DNA of 63,356 bases, filler included, from Reclinomonas americana ATCC 50394 (Eukaryota): NCBI GenBank assembly GCA_048213135.1. It is 6 parts of 6 records of this genome, joined end to end, with 100 filler letters (N's around TTAATTAATTAA, not from the genome) between each part and the next. Parts side by side here need not be neighbours in the genome. Positions count along the whole stretch, not along the records: positions 1 to 18,452 come from PS015379.1; 5 more parts are not named here. One strand, given 5' to 3'. The notes beneath the pieces were generated by a model. That model was not told the DNA's origin. It ran no database searches and worked only from the letters and a program-made list of their open reading frames with translations. Position 1 is the first letter of the stretch, and each line of letters starts with the position of its first letter. Of the stretch, positions 3,001 through 56,759 are shown piece after piece. The translations under genes and the position numbers were made by a program.

Positions 3001-3615
3001 CGTCGTCGTCCATCAACACACGTCGTTTGCTGTGCATTGATGTTAGCAAGTGGCGCCGCAAAAAAGAAGAAGCGATGTGACAGCACGCAACTGCGACGAA
3101 GAAGGCGGTGGAGGCGAGTCGCCGATCACCAGCTTCAGTGGCACCACCTCGGCCTCGTACTGATCGGCCACCATCCAGCGCGGAACAACCACCGGTGAGT
3201 TGGACTTGCGTCGCACAATGTTCTCGTGGTCGGCGAAGAAGGAGACCTGGCCGTCCTGTGACAGGAGGGAGAAAGGAGAGAAGGGGAAAGGGAGAGGGGG
3301 AGGGGGAGAATGAGAGAGTGAGGTAGGGAGGGAGGGAGAGAGGCAGAGATAACGGGGGAGAAGAGGGGCGAGAGTGAGTGAGAACGAGTGTGCGTGAGAA
3401 TGAGTGTGCGTTTGTGAGTTAGTAAGCGAGGCAGAAGAGAGAGAGAGGTAGATACAGAGAGACATCGAGGGAGGAAGGCAAGAGACGAGCGGGGAATGCG
3501 TGAGAGGGAGGTAGAAAGATTGAGAAAGAGAGAACGTAGGCAATCACTGTTGCTCTCCCTCTGTCTCTGCATGCGTGCGTGAGAGAGAGTGAGGGAGAGA
3601 GGGGGGAATGGGAGA

Positions 3616-3653
<38 letters not shown>

Positions 3654-4455
3654 AAGAGGACAATCACTGCTGCTGTCTCTCTCTCTCTCTCTCTCTGCAT
3701 GTGTGCGTGAGAGAGACAGAGGCAGAAACAGAGACGGAGACAGACACACACAGAGGGGGGGGGGAGAAAGCATGAGAGAGTCAGCAGTGGCAGTGATCGC
3801 TCTCTGTCTCACACTCACACACACACGCACACACACTGCCTCATCTGTGCGTGAGAAAGAATGAGTGAGTGTTGTGTTGTTTCTCAGTCTCTCTTCCCTC
3901 TTTCTCTTTCTTCGTCCCTTCCTCCTCTCTTGCTCTCCTCTCTCTCTCTCTCTCTCTCTCTGTGAATGTATGTGCGCGTGTATTCTTCCTCATTTCTCTC
4001 TCTTCTCCCTCATTTCCCTCCTCTCTCTCTCCCTCCCTTCCCCCCCTCTCTCCCTCTCCCCCCTTCCCCCTCTCTCCCCCTCTCCCCCCCTCTCTGCCTC
4101 CGCACACCTTCCTCGGAGAATGTGCCACCTGCGTTGCCTGCTTCACAGAGGCCACCGGAGAGGGCTTTGCCGGGCTGCGCTCACGTGAGGGGCTCTTGAC
4201 AGCAAAACGAGTCACACTGACTTCCGCTGGTCGATCCAGTGGAGGCGGAGGTCGAAGAGCAGAAGAAGAAGGCGGAGGAAGAAGAGGCGGAGAGGGTTGA
4301 TGATCAACTGTGTGTAAACAGAGACAGAGAGAGAGTGAGTAACTGTACAATGCATATGTTTGCCTGCCAAGAGTGTTACCTTGTTCGTCGTCGAGGAAGA
4401 GGGCGAAGCAGGGCGGAGAGTCGTCCTCATCTTCGTCGTCGTTGTGCGTGCTCAT
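72..4455 (-). CDS. Multi-exon low-complexity protein with a UBZ4-type zinc finger and SIM-like motifs; 3' end runs out of the window or into the CT repeat
   Basis: Exon ~1820-1890 encodes ECPICMLRFPLAEINAHVDQC (C-x2-C-x11-H-x3-C). It also has hydrophobic/acidic motifs VTLDEEE, LEILSCASDDDD and ILDLTD, and the exon GYWRTIGGRRTYITGKRKLVGGAAMNQYRQ. The probable ATG at 4455 gives MSTHNDDEDEDD followed by a GT donor. Exon chain approximate. Confidence 0.55.
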
Positions 4456-4937: not shown

Positions 4938-5046
4938 TGCAACTTGACCCACCCGAGTCCCCACTCAACAATCCCCTCTCGTCGACCACAACTGACCCAT
5001 GCATGCCTCAACGAGTCACCCCACCGCTGTGCACCACTCTCCACTT
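4938..5046 (+). promoter_or_regulatory. snRNA promoter elements shared by both U2-like genes
   Basis: TGCAACTTGAC (4938-4948) and CCACAACTGACC (4986-4997) recur on the - strand upstream of the second copy (6463-6473, 6269-6280). The proximal element is at the same distance (48-49 nt) from each inferred start. Confidence 0.6.
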
Positions 5047-5262
5047 GTACCTCTCGGCCCTCGTGGCTGTGATCAAGTGTAGTATCTGTTCTACCCAGAT
5101 TAACCTCTGGGTGCCACGCTCCCAAAAGCGTGGTCACTAGAATGTTAGCCTAATTTCTCATCCCCGGGGTTCCCTCGTACTGTTGGAGAGTCGGCTAGCC
5201 GACGTCTCTCGAGGGATGGGGTGTTCCTCTTATTGCACCCGTCGAGAGGATACGCCCTGCCC
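5047..5262 (+). ncRNA. U2: U2 spliceosomal snRNA
   Basis: Contains CTCGGCC..GGCT-GT-GATCAAGTGTAGTATCTGTTCT (branch-point recognition GUAGUA within 5071-5092), stem IIa CCCAGA/TTAACC/TCTGGG, stem IIb CCACGCT/AGCGTGG, IIc complement GTTAG, Sm-like AATTTCTC, stem III TCCCTCG/CGAGGGA, and terminal stem-loop IV with loop ATTGCAC. Confidence 0.95.
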
Positions 5263-5689
5263 AAACCCCACCATAAACAACTCTGAAAACGAAAAACATG
5301 CTGAAGGGAAGCAACCTCTCTCCCGCTCTCTATCTGCATCTCTCTTTGAGTCTTTTCATGCAACTCTAGCATGGAAGCCTCTCTCTCACACACACACTCT
5401 GTCGCTCTCTCCTGCACAACATATGGGTGTGACAACAAACCTGGCCTCTGAGAGCTGAACACGCGCTTCGAGCGACTGGAAGCCCTGGCGCAGCTCGTCA
5501 AGGACAGCCTGGAGCTTGTCATCGAGAGTCTGGAGCTTGTCATCGAGCTTGCCAAGTATCTCAGCACGCAGCCCATCCAACAGCTCAACGACATCCTCAC
5601 GGGTTGCCGCCATTTCTCGCCGTCTGTCAGGTCGGAGGAGAACAGGACCTTGTCCGGGGGGTTTACAGCACCCGAAGGTCAGAAGCCAC

Positions 5690-5731
<42 letters not shown>

Positions 5732-5843
5732 GAGAGAAGCGAGGGACGAGGTCGTTCCCGTCCGGCAGCTCGACCACCCGCTAGTTGTACAACAACTACA
5801 ATAATCAGACAAAANNNNNNNNNNNNNNNNNNNNNNNNNNNNN

Positions 5844-5986
5844 GCTCCATGGGATTTCCGAGAAGACGCTGCCGCACCTGCACCTGCTGCTCAGCCGCCA
5901 CCACCAGCAGCAGCACCAGCACCAGAAGCAGCAGAGCAGCCACCACTACCAGACGCAGAAGCAGAAGAAGAAGCTCCCGATGAATA
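5844..5986 (+). CDS. 3' fragment of a Pro/Ala/Glu-rich protein (5' part lost in gap)
   Basis: Frame after the gap reads APWDFREDAAAPAPAAQPPPPAAAPAPEAAEQPPLPDAEAEEEAPDE-stop. Confidence 0.3.
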
Positions 5987-6043
5987 ATGACTTGTTTGTT
6001 GTTGTTTTTTTCGTGTTTCAGCGTTTCGTGTGGTGGCGGGGTT

Positions 6044-6220
6044 GGTCAGGGTTGCATCCTCTCGAACCAGTGCAATGAGAGGATGCGCCCCGTCCCTCGG
6101 TTCCCACCGGGGAACGGTGACGGCAAGCCGCACCGACGAAGGAGACTCCCGCAGGAGAAATTAGGTTAACATTCAAGTGGTGCTGGTGAGCGTGGCGCTC
6201 ACGAACGACCGAGTTGTGCT
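6044..6220 (-). ncRNA. U2-derived variant snRNA lacking the branch-point recognition region and stem IIa
   Basis: The reverse complement aligns to the U2 copy: CTCGG..TCGTG, then GCGCCACGCTC..CACTTGAATGTTAACCTAATTTCTCC, stem TCCTTCG/CGAGGGA, and hairpin GCATCCTCTC-ATTGCACTGGTTC-GAGAGGATGC. About 45 nt including GATCAAGTGTAGTA is absent. Confidence 0.75.
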
Positions 6221-6944
6221 GGTTGGAAGGCGGTGCTGGTGGTTGGGTCATTCAGTGTGACACGCGGAGGTCAGTTGTGGGGGATGAGAGACGAAAGAGA
6301 GAGGATTGTTGTGTGTGGACCCTCAATGCAGGGAAGATTGTTTGCTTTCTCCCTTTACTCTTTGTTTTTCTCTTTCCTCACTCGTCTCCTTTCACAAGAG
6401 ATAGGGAAGTGGAGCAATGATGGAGGGGGTTCATGGAGAAGACAGCTTGCTCGTGGCGATGAGTCAAGTTGCAAATTTATGACCGTACGTGATAGGCTTT
6501 TGCTGATTATGTAGTTGTTGACAACTGCGGGGTGTCAGCTGCCGGAGGGAACACCTCGTCCCCTGCTTCTCTCTATTNNNNNNNNNNNNNNNNNNNNGAG
6601 TGAGTGAGTGAGTGAGAGAGTGAGTGAGTGAGAGAGAGAGTGAGTGAGTGAGTGAGTGAGTGAGTGAGTGAGCGAGTGAGTGAGTGAGTGAGTGAGTGAG
6701 TGAGTGAGTGAGTGAGTGAGTGAAGGGGAGTGAGAGAGAGAGAGAGAGAGAGAGGATGAGTGAGTGAGTGAGCGTGTGCAGTGAGGAAGCGCATGTCTCT
6801 GGGTAACCTTTGATCACAGGAGCGCGTCGTACACCACTCGCACTCGCCATTTCTTGCAATCAGTGATCAGTTGGCGCGAAAATTTACTCTCCTTTACTTC
6901 ACCACCGATTCTTCTGCTGCCCTTCTCCCGCGCGCGCGCCAACA

Positions 6945-8410: not shown

Positions 8411-11400
8411 TCACCACCGCAGACCGAGTCGCCACACCTGCGGTTGGAGGTGTGAGCTGATGCAAGTCCATCTCGTCACCGTCGTTTAGTCGCTCTCAGT
8501 CCGCCTCTCCCTCAGTCTCTCTCAGTCTCTTAGTCTCTCCATATCTCTCCATGTCTCTCTCACTCTTCGCAATCCCTCACCGTCTATCTCTCTCCCAGCC
8601 TCTCAGAGAGAGAGAAAGAGAAAGAAAAAGAGTCTGAGAGAGGCTAGAGAGAGACACACACAGAGAGTGAGAAAGAGTCTCAGAACCTTTCTCTACTTCT
8701 CTCTTAGTCGCTCTCAGTCTATGTCTCTCTCAGTCTCTAGGTCCCCCTCAGTCTCTTTCTCTTTTTTCTCTCTCAGCCCCCTCAGTCTCTCTCTCATTCT
8801 CTCGCAGTCTCTTTCAGTCTCTCTCCATGTCTATCTCAGTCTCTCTATGTCTCCCAGTCTCTCTCAATCTCTCGCAGTCTCTCCCTGGCCCTCTCAGTCC
8901 TCTCAGTCCCTCTCTCNNNNNNNNNNNNNNNNNNNNTCCTCCTCTCTCTCTCTCTCTCTGTCTCTCTGTCTCTCTCTCTCTCTCTCTCATCCTCTTTCTC
9001 TCTCCTTCTCCTTCTCCCCCTCCCTCTCTGTCACAGTGCTCACCTTGATCGACTTGTCGCTCGAGGCCGTGACCAGAAGCGTACCGATTCGCACAAAATC
9101 ATTAATCGCCTTGGTGTGCGCCTGACATGTGTCGACGCACACCAACGTGTTTGTGTCCCACAACTGCAACACCGACATGAGCACACACGTAAGACCACAC
9201 TTGCGTGACAATACGCACCTTGACTTCACCGCCCTTGGAGCCGCTGATGAGCATGTCGTGCTCCGGGTACGAGGAGAGCGCCGTCACCCAGTCGTCGTGT
9301 GCCTTGAAGCTCTCCGTGTTCTCGTACGAGACGCCATCCCACTCCTTGATGTGCAAATCACGCGATGAGGTGTACATGGCGCCGCTGCAGAGCGCCAGAT
9401 CGGTGACCGCGTCGTAGTGTGGTGGGTGAAAGCTGGCATACTCCTCCAGCGACTGGTCGTCCCACAGCTGCCAATCGATCACGCACGGCTCAGAATCACG
9501 AGTGCGTCGTCGTTCCGCCCACAACAACAACAACTACAAACCTTCACATGGTGATCGCGAGATACCGTCACCAGCAGATGGTCGGAGAATCCCATCGAAA
9601 ACACCGTGGACGTGTGTGCCGTCTTGACGGTCACCAGTGTCTCCAGCGTCGTGGCATTCGACATTTTCACGCAGCCATCGTCGCCTGCCAAACGCTCGTG
9701 TAAGTCATCCATCCCTCCCCCTCAGAACATTTCCTCCCACTGGCGGACTCACTGGCCGAGTACAAACGCCCGCCACACTCGAGAATCGCCGTGACACCCT
9801 TCCGATGCGCCGTGACTGTGGCCAGACACTCAAAGGTGACCAAGCTCCACATCTGCGCACACACACCGGACCGATGAGAATACGAACTTGTCTGCGTGCA
9901 TTTGCAGGTGCAGACGAAACTCGAATCTTGCGGTCCTCGCCACCCGTGTAGAATCGCTTCACCTCGCCGTCCGTGTTGACACACGTACACAGGGCCGGTC
10001 CGTCGTGCGCCTGCATCGTCTTGATGCACTTTAACCGCGCCAAATCCCACAGCTGTTTGACAATGCGATGAGCAGTCCGTCGAAATCAACAACAACGAGG
10101 GGAAGACTTTGCGACGCAACTCGAGCCTGTCCATCGAGCGCGACGCTAATCAGCGTCTCGTCGTACACGTCCAGTTGCATCACGAAACCTGTGTGACCGG
10201 CCAGCACGCCCACCAACCGCATCGACTCGGACCCCTCCTGTCCATTCAGTGGATCCTGCTCGCGTACGTACGGCTTGCCAAATAGTCTCACGGTCTGCGT
10301 GGCATTGAGTGAGGAAGGAGACGACTAGAGAGAGAGACACACATGCATCCCGACTCCATTCGCACCCGCTTGGTCGTGTACTTGACATTCTCTCGCATCT
10401 GATCCGAAATCATACGACGCTGCGTTGCGTTCTCGTCACACATCACGCGCCAAGCACAGCGACACGTTTGCACAAGTGACTCACCTTTTGCGACACTGCT
10501 CGCCGCCGTCGGGCGCCCTCGCTCTCGTAGCCCATGACCTCCCGGGCCGCGGACTCGTCGAGTGCCAGCGTGACGCGGCCGGGGGGACCACTGAGCCGGC
10601 GCGGTTCGTACTCGCCAAAGGAACCCGATAGCGCCGGGCTTGTGGGCGAGAACGACGACATGCTCAGCGGTGCAATCGGAGTGTCCGCCGAACTGGCTCG
10701 CCCACCACTGGCCACAAACGCCGACCACATGGGCCGTGCCAGCGAATTGTAATCGGTAGGCGGTGGTGCACTGGCCACCTGCCGCATCATCGTTGCCGAC
10801 GACCCCGGCCCGAAGCGCGACTCGGTGTAGTTGCTAAAGTGACCGCCGGGTTGCTGCAATGCATTGAAAAGGTGAGTATCACGCTCGCCTTTTCCCTTCC
10901 TGTCACCGCCTCACGCAACTCGAATGACAGTGGTGGTGCCGGCAATGCTACTGCGCAACAGCGGCCGCGCACTGGACGGCGACGAGTCCACGTACGGCAC
11001 ATGCATGTCGTCTGCCAGCGACGACGACGACCCCGCAGCAACGCTGGTTCGCGGCCGCGGTGGCGGCGGCAAGCTCTTGCGCGACACTACAAACAAACAG
11101 AGAGTCAAACACCAGCGCCTCTCCCCCGCGCTGCAATCGCACACACGTGCACGCACCTCCGTCGGGCGAGTTCGGCGCCATGTCACCGGCCAGGTAATAC
11201 GGCGACGGAAGCGATGGCTGCCCGACGCCGCCCACTCGACTGTGATGATGCAGCTGCTGCTGGTGCTGACGCTGATGATGATGATGCGATGCCGCGCTGG
11301 AGCTCAGATCGGCGATTCGCAACGCCGCTGATGCCACTGCGCCAACATCATCAGTCGCCGTCTCTGCATGACGGAGAAATCATCAGTCATCTCTTCTGTG

Positions 11401-55046: not shown

Positions 55047-56589
55047 ATGTGGTCGCAGTCACTTCGACTGCGGCTGCTCGGCCTGATGCCGCCACAGCGC
55101 ACCACTGCGGTGGTGCAGCAGATGGTGTGGGCATCCACGCGCGCCTCCATTCAGCGTGTGGAGAGCGAGTCGTTCCTCAGTGGAGCCTCTGCGTTGCGTA
55201 ACAGACTGAGAAGAAGAGTGGAGAGGAGAGGAGTGAGCAGATGCACAAGCAAAGAGACAACACGTGCGTGAGAGTGAGTGTGAGTGTGTGCGTTGGTTTG
55301 GCCCACATGGGCATGCCTGTGTTAGTTTTGGTCAATCTGCATGCTCTTCTCTCTCGCTTGACTCTCACTGTGCGCGCGCGTGTGTGTGTGCGTGCTGGCT
55401 CGTTCTGGTCTCTGGGAGAAGAAGAAAAAAACGAGTCGACTGCTGCAAAGTTTTGATTGATGTATAATGTTCGTTTTCCCTCGCAAACACACAGATGCAC
55501 AGATGCACTCTTTCTCTCTTCCTTTCTCTCTCATTGTGCTCGCTCGACCAGCGCATTCACACACAGATCAGTGATTGATGAAATGGGAAACTGGGGGGGG
55601 GGGGTTTGCTGTCAGTCATCTGCATGTCGTACTCACACACACTCGCATACAGTCAAGTGGTAGACGACATGTATCAGCAGTGGCAGGCGGATGCCAACTC
55701 GGTGCCGGAGTCGTGGCGCAAGTTTTTCGGCGATGTGGATCGCTCAGGTGCTGTGGATCCGAGCAAATCGATTCCCTTTGTGCCGCTCGCACGCACCACC
55801 GTCCTCTCGGCGGCGGCGGTGGAGGCCACTGGATCGCAGGCGTCGCCCATGACCAGCAAGAGCGTCGAGCGAGAGCTGCAGGATCACAACATTCGTTGCG
55901 CGCGCGTGTTGTGTTGCCTTCTTTTGCTGCCCTTCCTGACCCTCTCGCGTGCGCACAGTGACACAGCTCATTCGTGGGTACCGCGTGCGCGGCCACTTGC
56001 TGGCCGACTTGGACCCGCTCAAGCTCGACAAGCGCCCCTACGCGGCCGATCTCGATCCAAGCAGCTACGGTTTCACGGAGGCCGACATGCAACGCAAGTT
56101 TTACGTGGGCGAGAGTCTGGGCCTGGTGGCCACCGAGGAGGAGCCGCATTCATGGCGCACCCTCGAGTCCATCATTGCACAGCTCAAGTCTGCGTACTGC
56201 GGCCGGCTCGGTGTGGAGTTCTTCCACATTGCCGATCAGGGCCAGCGTGCTTTCCTCGGTCGCATTGTTGCGCATGTTGTTGTTATTATTGTTGTCGTCG
56301 CGTCGCTTTTGTGGCACATTGCTTACTCGTGCTGCAGATGGAGCGCCAGAACCCGTACGCACTCTCGGCAGAGAAGAAGAAACGTATCCTGCTGGGTTTG
56401 CTGCACGCTGACCGCTTCGAGAACTTCCTCAAGACCAAGTGGACCACGGCCAAGCGCTTTGGACTGGAGGGTGGCGAGGCTCTGATCCCGGCTCTGGACA
56501 TGCTGATTACGCACGCGTCGGAGCTCGGTGTCGAGGCTTGCGTGCTCGGCATGCCCCATCGTGGTCGTCTATCTGTGCTGTGCAACATT
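55047..56589 (+). CDS. OGDH: 2-oxoglutarate dehydrogenase E1, 5' part
   Basis: Presequence plus ESFLSGASA|QVVDDMYQQWQADANSVPESW, LIRGYRVRGHLLADLDPL, YCGRLGVEFFHI, FENFL-TKW-TAKRFGLEGGE and GMPHRGRL. Confidence 0.95.
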
Positions 56590-56759
56590 GTTGCGTCGCT
56601 GATGCTGCTGATGATGGATGCACAGTGTGCTCTCTGCTCACCCTTTTTCTCTCCCATCNNNNNNNNNNNNNNNNNNNNNNNNNNNNNNNNNNNNNNNNNN
56701 NNTTAATTAATTAANNNNNNNNNNNNNNNNNNNNNNNNNNNNNNNNNNNNNNNNNNNNT

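Follow-up and report, generated by a model that had tools for sequence, protein, structure and literature searches.

A U2-derived snRNA gene copy lacking the U6- and branch-site-pairing core in Reclinomonas americana

Several small RNAs, namely U7, nematode SmY, the spliced-leader RNAs and the herpesvirus HSURs, carry an Sm site between stem-loops and are encoded by genes of the snRNA type. To our knowledge, none of these is derived from U2. The counterpart of U2 in the minor spliceosome is U12, an RNA of ancient origin that resembles U2 and has both an Sm site and 3' stem-loops. Among Sm-class RNAs with no part in splicing catalysis, HSUR2 is a described example (PMC6763288).

Families of variant and pseudogene snRNA copies have been reported in human (PMC8457000, PMC3561869), and the status of individual copies as genes or pseudogenes has been revised repeatedly (PMC3561869, PMC8457000, PMC12165851). 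In experimental work, a human U2 lacking SLI and stems IIa and IIb was reported to be expressed like the wild type, to bind Sm proteins and to reach Cajal bodies; since it binds neither SF3a nor SF3b, this engineered RNA mimics an immature snRNP (PMC5909452). In a literature search we found no natural U2 copy with its core cut out and the rest kept. Here we describe a candidate from an assembly of Reclinomonas americana, and compare it with the intact U2 gene of the same scaffold and with these systems.

The intact U2 gene and its copy

The DNA analysed (hereafter the window) is a stretch of 63,356 nucleotides from R. americana ATCC 50394, a gappy draft scaffold of an intron-bearing eukaryote with 20 runs of N (for example at 5815-5843, 6578-6597, 19192-19963 and 21346-22257). 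Several of the gaps consist of paired 44-N runs placed 12 bases apart, and the order and orientation of the small contigs are uncertain. The sole snRNA gene found by Rfam in the window is a full-length U2 (Table 1), which folds at -85.2 kcal/mol (z -3.82) and which we used as the reference for all comparisons with the copy.

Apart from U2, a whole-window Rfam scan at E<=0.5 returned only sub-threshold matches to microRNA families and two sub-threshold matches of small-nucleolar type (snoR125 and SCARNA2). The microRNA-family matches, at 3612-3710, 8609-8771 and 44753-45000 and on both strands, reach 56.6 bits for MIR533 (gathering score 80) and for the most part coincide with GA/CT-rich microsatellites. 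Low complexity or gaps are their most likely cause, because 3612-3710 lies on a (GA)n run and 44753-45000 spans two 44-N gaps. For protein-coding genes, we identified at 55606-56703 (+) an exon for the N-terminus of 2-oxoglutarate dehydrogenase E1 (Pfam PF16078, E 5e-10), in a gene that looks intron-rich. Its best relatives in a collection of 5.8 billion proteins are 52-61% identical over about one fifth of the query, and proteins of this genome and of its close relatives seem to be absent from that collection. Searches with the eleven other long ORFs of the window gave nothing beyond one weak WD40 match.

Table 1. Coordinates of the U2 gene, the U2-derived copy and their elements, counted along the window
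Feature	Position	Strand	Description
U2 upstream blocks	4957-4997	+	Distal GTCCCCACTCAACAATCC (4957-4974); proximal PSE-like block with core CCACAACTGACC (4986-4997)
Intact U2 snRNA gene	5049-5264	+	Rfam RF00004, 84.2 bits (gathering score 46), E 3.6e-15, model positions 1-192 of 192
U2 segment without counterpart in the copy	5068-5112	+	45 nt; U6 helix I region, branch-site recognition GUAGUA, stem IIa
Assembly gap	5815-5843	.	29 N (list of N runs); separates the U2-bearing contig from the 734-bp contig with the copy
Copy, 3' flank	5990-6043	-	Blocks common to the U2 3' flank, e.g. CTGAAA and an A-rich run
Copy, predicted transcript	6044-6217	-	About 174 nt; both ends placed by homology with U2
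Copy, SL-IV equivalent	6049-6091	-	Loop AUUGCAC (6070-6076); 28/36 identical, loop 7/7
Copy, SL-III equivalent	6093-6143	-	Kept outer stem around two new hairpins, three-way junction
Copy, single-stranded block ending in Sm-like site	6155-6179	-	Sm-like site AAUUUCUC (6155-6162); 23/25 identical to U2 5135-5159
Copy, new 5' hairpin	6186-6202	-	GUGAGCG-CCA-CGCUCAC, across the deletion junction; in the minimum-energy fold
Copy, spacer from proximal block to start region	6214-6268	-	55 nt, 27/55 identical, gap-free
Copy, proximal PSE-like block	6269-6286	-	15/18 identical to U2; core 6269-6280 12/12
Copy, distal promoter block	6303-6320	-	16/18 identical to U2 4957-4974

The original prediction held that a U2-derived paralog lies beside the intact gene. 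BLAST aligned positions 6007-6201 of the copy with U2 5296-5108 (67% over 200 columns, E 7e-18) and positions 6209-6290 with U2 5057-4976 (67.5% over 83 columns, E 3e-6), and the 20-mer GAATGTTARCCTAATTTCTC, which covers the Sm site, has two occurrences in the window, one per gene (0.00 expected, from 100 shuffles). These alignments, and a 20-mer confined to the two genes, confirm the paralog as real. With homology spanning promoter, RNA and 3' flank, the copy is, judged on its sequence, a DNA-level duplicate of the neighbouring U2 gene. Over the aligned transcribed part, 97/143 positions are identical (0.68, pairwise alignment), and the point divergence of the copy from U2 is 33%.

A search of the copy (5850-6570) against 4227 Rfam families at E<=10 matched none of them, whether U2, U12 or another snRNA, and its 3' half alone (6030-6182) likewise gave no match at this threshold. 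The covariance-model check proposed with the prediction gave no match of the copy to RF00004 (gathering score 46 bits) even at E<=10, against 84.2 bits for the neighbouring U2, and the copy would escape standard annotation. When folded (6040-6218), the copy reaches -75 kcal/mol (z -4.14), and none of 200 shuffles is as stable. In its minimum-energy fold, a 7-bp hairpin forms at the junction, the Sm region stays unpaired, SL-III becomes a three-way junction, and SL-IV has a stem of 10 bp.

A single 734-bp contig (5844-6577), flanked by the N runs 5815-5843 and 6578-6597, carries the entire gene, from distal promoter block through 3' flank. The described placement of the copy, 0.8 kb from U2 and in convergent orientation, depends on the scaffold join, and how far from U2 it lies, and which way round, is uncertain.

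We additionally identified an inverted repeat (5728-5814 and 6498-6577; 87% identical over 87 columns, E 2e-17) present in two copies only in the window. Both arms lie at contig ends beside N runs, are far more alike than the two U2 genes, and each contain a small palindrome (TAGTTGT...ACAACTA); the repeat may be an assembly-breaking repeat or a shared regulatory element. A short ORF, read by eye, is located between the two U2 genes at 5400-5613 (-), with an ATG at 5613 and a direct 21-nt repeat (5492-5533, 76% identical).

Retained and lost elements of the copy

Upstream of the copy, CCACAACTGACC is found exactly as in U2, at 6269-6280 (-) and 4986-4997 (+) respectively, and in both genes it starts 67 nt before CTCGG. 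We take the proximal block to be PSE-like from its position, which points to a presumptive snRNA-type promoter element. The distal block (AACAATCC) is also shared, but the gap between distal and proximal blocks is 11 nt longer in the copy than in U2. Because of these 11 extra bases, the reported sharing of upstream elements at equal spacing holds, as far as spacing is concerned, for the proximal block only. Identity in the spacer (27/55) compares with 0.30 by chance, and 4/5000 shuffles reach 27; it has no indel though about half of its bases differ, whereas the other flanks are gap-rich. A similar 3' flank had also been noted, and we recovered short blocks common to both genes over U2 5259-5320 (38/62 identical, 27 gap columns), which may have a role in 3'-end formation.

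Within the RNA, the Sm-like site AATTTCTC at 6155-6162 is, as described, the same in both genes (8/8), within a pre-Sm and Sm block of 23/25 identical positions, and the stretch that follows it is 5/12 identical to U2. We observed the same unusual Sm site, AAUUUCUC, which ends in C where G is usual, in the U2 genes of several unrelated environmental eukaryote lineages; it is therefore not peculiar to this genome.

All seven pairs of the SL-III outer stem are kept, one of them now as G-U. The SL-III interior (6101-6135, 11/30 identical to U2) has been rebuilt with two other hairpins, as the original prediction stated, and both are in the minimum-energy fold. The terminal hairpin with the AUUGCAC loop is likewise borne out: the loop at 6070-6076 is intact and the hairpin forms in the minimum-energy fold, with a 10-bp inner stem GCAUCCUCUC/GAGAGGAUGC and a 3-bp outer stem. 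Compared with the 13 pairs of U2 SL-IV, 11 are kept (one with a two-sided and one with a one-sided change) and two are broken. The copy thereby has the U2-type arrangement of an Sm site followed by SL-III and then by SL-IV with an AUUGCA loop. The stems had been said to differ in sequence and still to pair; pairing is indeed mostly kept, but compensatory changes are few, with one two-sided change, two one-sided changes and two broken pairs among 20.

The deletion of the core was confirmed. The best-fitting deletion, among starts 5056-5077 and lengths 38-49, removes U2 5068-5112 (45 nt), and MAFFT places 42 gap columns of the missing segment within U2 5061-5110. The missing 45 nt contain GAUCAAGUGUAGUA and stem IIa, and neither the U6 helix I partner GAUC...AGUGUAGUA nor GUAGUA has a counterpart in the copy. 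Pairing with U6 helix I and with the branch site is impossible for the copy and, with this pairing part and stem IIa lost, it cannot work as U2 in splicing. The loss of an element essential to the parent, a feature of snRNA pseudogenes, is seen here as the 45-nt core deletion. Stem IIb cannot form either: its 5' strand is 10/11 identical to U2 but now pairs upstream, and the rest of the stem (the 3' strand) has been replaced (3/8 identical, with 5 gap columns). Outside the deletion, the 5' remnant matches U2 at 28/36 positions and has decayed no further than the 3' elements, which fits a late loss of the core.

The predicted new hairpin GUGAGCG/CGCUCAC (6186-6202) is present in the minimum-energy fold of the copy. 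In neutral simulations of a deleted U2, a perfect hairpin of at least 7 bp arose in 209/5000 replicates and the folding energy of the junction hairpin was reached in 1418/5000; the hairpin is mildly unusual as a perfect 7-bp stem, and as evidence of selection it is weak.

We also considered the copy as an antisense RNA to the U2 5' core, and rejected this candidate, as shuffles match its complementarity in 738/1000 and 215/500 trials.

Neutral decay, constraint and competing explanations

As a neutral yardstick we used the gap-free 55-nt promoter spacer, whose identity of 0.49, against 0.30 by chance, corresponds to about 0.9 substitutions per site between the copies. The identity expected at U2-constrained sites, if only the copy has drifted since duplication, is 0.67, and the overall transcribed identity of 0.68 is close to this neutral expectation. 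The changes are distributed unevenly along the copy (heterogeneity chi2 33.3, df 7, p 2.4e-5). RNA elements defined a priori (the pre-Sm and Sm block, outer SL-III, linker and SL-IV) are identical at 68/82 positions against the expected 0.67 (P 7.7e-4), a result that loses significance at the upper confidence bound of spacer identity (P 0.18). The promoter blocks, which were picked after the data had been seen, are identical at 31/36 positions (P 0.0075).

Among 20 homologous stem pairs, in a comparison of two sequences at a single locus, 15 are unchanged, two have one-sided changes and are still paired, one has a two-sided change and is still paired, and two are broken. About 8.5 broken pairs would be expected at a per-site identity of 0.67 (P 0.002), and the test weakens to P 0.046 at a per-site identity of 0.80 and to 0.12 at 0.84. 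The 3' domain of the copy is more stable than that of U2 (-55.2 vs -45.9 kcal/mol), a value reached by 23/2000 replicates that decay at random positions; when the changed positions are those observed and only the replacement bases are random, 221/2000 replicates fold as well.

Taken together, block conservation, stem-pair retention and 3'-domain stability indicate that constraint acted on the promoter and 3' domain of the copy during much of the period that followed duplication. The proposal of a selected, repurposed snRNA rather than a decaying pseudogene is supported in so far as the substitutions are unlike uniform neutral decay since duplication (chi2 33.3; 68/82; 2/20 pairs broken). Its other part, selection acting now on a repurposed RNA, is unsupported, because a divergent working U2 that had lost its core fairly recently predicts the same pattern. 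Early core loss with selection since, and fairly recent core deletion from a divergent working U2, fit the data equally well.

On balance, we lean towards the view that the copy is a crippled member of the U2 family, long constrained, and with no demonstrated function of its own. In this view selection maintained it over much of its existence, probably as a divergent U2 gene. An internal deletion of some 45 nt took the U6- and branch-site-pairing part and stem IIa out of the duplicated U2, and left what appear to be the signals of an Sm-class RNA: a promoter block whose distance from the start is unchanged, the Sm site, the outer stem of SL-III, and the U2A'/U2B''-binding loop of SL-IV. If the copy is transcribed, as we infer, its RNA would be capped, acquire an Sm ring together with U2A'/U2B'', and reach the nucleus, where it would presumably stall as a 12S-like immature U2 particle, unable to take up SF3b or SF3a. 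Transcription would not guarantee accumulation, since pseudogene-derived snRNAs are reported to be degraded by quality control (PMC13573567).

A crippled U2 is consistent with the lack of any Rfam match at E<=10, with an identity (0.68) near the neutral 0.67, with the loss of U2 5068-5112, and with a 5' remnant (28/36) that fits late loss. Two-sided compensatory change is seen in only 1/20 pairs, 221/2000 fixed-position replicates fold as well, the energy of the junction hairpin is ordinary (1418/5000), and complementarity to the U2 5' core does not exceed that of shuffles. Broken U2 copies are found in other lineages too, with four replaced 5' ends and one internal rearrangement among the 56 metagenome loci described below. 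Against this explanation, the key blocks are too well kept for a copy that was neutral since duplication (68/82; promoter 31/36, post hoc), and nothing has changed in the promoter core (12/12), the Sm site (8/8) or the SL-IV loop (7/7). The 55-nt spacer is indel-free, the SL-III interior has been rebuilt into two well-paired hairpins instead of being degraded, and the 3' domain is more stable than that of U2, at a level that 23/2000 random-position decay replicates reach. Two working U2 genes 0.8 kb apart would, furthermore, usually be homogenised. These points fit equally well with a core-less RNA that has stayed under selection.

We consider such an RNA, maintained and repurposed in the Sm class, less likely than a crippled U2. 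The copy would in this case be a natural, selected, non-catalytic descendant of U2, forming a core-only particle of Sm ring and U2A'/U2B'' that binds neither SF3b/SF3a, U6 nor the branch site. It might buffer or titrate U2 core proteins and the maturation capacity of Cajal bodies, or might target another RNA via its new 5' end and rebuilt SL-III. An engineered human U2 without SLI and IIa,b is reported to be stable and to assemble an Sm core (PMC5909452). In the copy, the presumptive expression and assembly signals are all intact while the catalytic part is missing, the blocks are conserved beyond what neutrality predicts (68/82, P 7.7e-4; heterogeneity p 2.4e-5), 2/20 pairs are broken against about 8.5 expected (P 0.002), and the spacer is indel-free. 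The exchange of the SL-III interior for two paired hairpins, a 3' domain more stable than that of U2, a whole-fold z of -4.14 and a perfect 7-bp junction hairpin (209/5000 under neutrality) point in the same direction. The block test, however, falls to P 0.18 at the upper neutral bound and the stem test to P 0.05-0.12 at per-site identities of 0.80-0.84, both in a comparison of two sequences at a single locus, and target complementarity was not found against the U2 5' core. Perfect hairpins can, moreover, arise by template-switch mutation without selection, and the prior for a repurposed RNA is low because spliceosomal snRNAs seldom give rise to new Sm-class RNAs.

A long-dead pseudogene, with its conserved blocks refreshed by short gene-conversion patches from the adjacent U2, would account for patchy identity between genes that lie close together, and for a transcribed identity (0.68) that equals the neutral expectation. 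We regard it as improbable: the best block is still mismatched at 2/25 positions and exact runs extend over only 8-12 nt, shorter than usual tracts, which argues against a recent conversion transfer, and conversion would not single out the promoter core, the Sm site and the SL-IV loop.

We attach very little weight to the copy as a putative spliced-leader-like or guide RNA, with a new 5' end of about 15 nt followed by a GUGAGC that resembles a 5' splice site. The order of elements (...GUUC/GUGAGCG at 6203/6202, with an Sm site downstream) does resemble the layout of spliced-leader RNAs, but GTRAG occurs by chance about once per eight such 60-nt stretches, and the motif is buried in the 7-bp hairpin. 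An assembly artefact, that is a chimeric or misplaced small contig, is just as hard to credit: the copy does lie on a 734-bp contig between N runs, and both neighbouring contig ends carry an 87%-identical inverted repeat, but a misjoin cannot yield a point divergence of 33% alongside stems and promoter blocks that stay coherent. The whole gene is inside one contig, and doubt attaches only to how far it lies from U2 and in which orientation.

Other genomes and known systems

We investigated the distribution of similar loci in other genomes. The shared 20-mer GAATGTTARCCTAATTTCTC had no match in a metagenome collection, and a scan of prokaryote genome contigs for it likewise gave none. A pattern scan of the metagenome for the U2 core with TAATTTCTC recovered 56 U2 loci. 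By BLAST, 55/56 match, and all matches are confined to U2 positions 1-61; since these first 61 nt are universal in U2, no locus represents a close relative. Searching the 56 loci against themselves gave three short matches only (19-22 nt), and no second U2-like copy.

Four of these metagenome loci (L023, L028, L039 and L044) have the first ~20 nt of U2 replaced by unrelated sequence, and a fifth (L042) has the segment from stem IIb to the Sm site repeated after SL-III. With four replaced 5' ends and one such rearrangement among 56 loci, damaged U2 copies are common in other lineages.

Should the R. americana copy prove to be expressed and maintained, it would present a rare case of a spliceosomal snRNA gene spawning a new Sm-class RNA, and a natural counterpart to the engineered core-only U2 of snRNP quality-control studies, so that the emergence of new snRNP classes could be tested in a eukaryote that has been little studied. 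As a crippled relic it would be ordinary, yet it would illustrate that the promoter and assembly signals of an snRNA can persist after its functional core is lost, and that covariance-model annotation misses such copies entirely.

The closest known family is U2 itself (RF00004), with which the copy shares the promoter blocks, the Sm-like site with its preceding block (23/25), the outer SL-III stem and an SL-IV with an AUUGCAC loop. It differs in lacking the U6 helix I region, GUAGUA and stem IIa, in a stem IIb that cannot form, and in a replaced SL-III interior. U12 keeps its branch-site recognition sequence, whereas the copy has none, and U12 was not matched among the 4227 Rfam families. The Rfam families of U7, SmY, spliced-leader and HSUR type likewise gave no match to the copy (E<=10).

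Among natural copies, the human variant snRNA genes and gene-duplicate pseudogenes (variant U1, and RNU2-2, formerly RNU2-2P) are similar in that they have diverged, have kept their promoters, and may be transcribed and packaged (PMC3561869, PMC8457000, PMC12165851). According to the abstracts of these papers, the human variants are full-length with point changes, whereas in the copy described here the functional core is deleted and SL-III is rebuilt.

The best functional analogue is the engineered U2 without SLI and IIa,b (Roithova et al. 2018, PMC5909452), in which only the Sm site, SL-III and SL-IV are kept. That RNA is an artificial human construct from which the first 94 nt were removed. 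The copy, in contrast, still has some 20 nt of the 5' end as well as the 5' strand of stem IIb, taken up into a new hairpin, and carries an SL-III unlike that of its parent.
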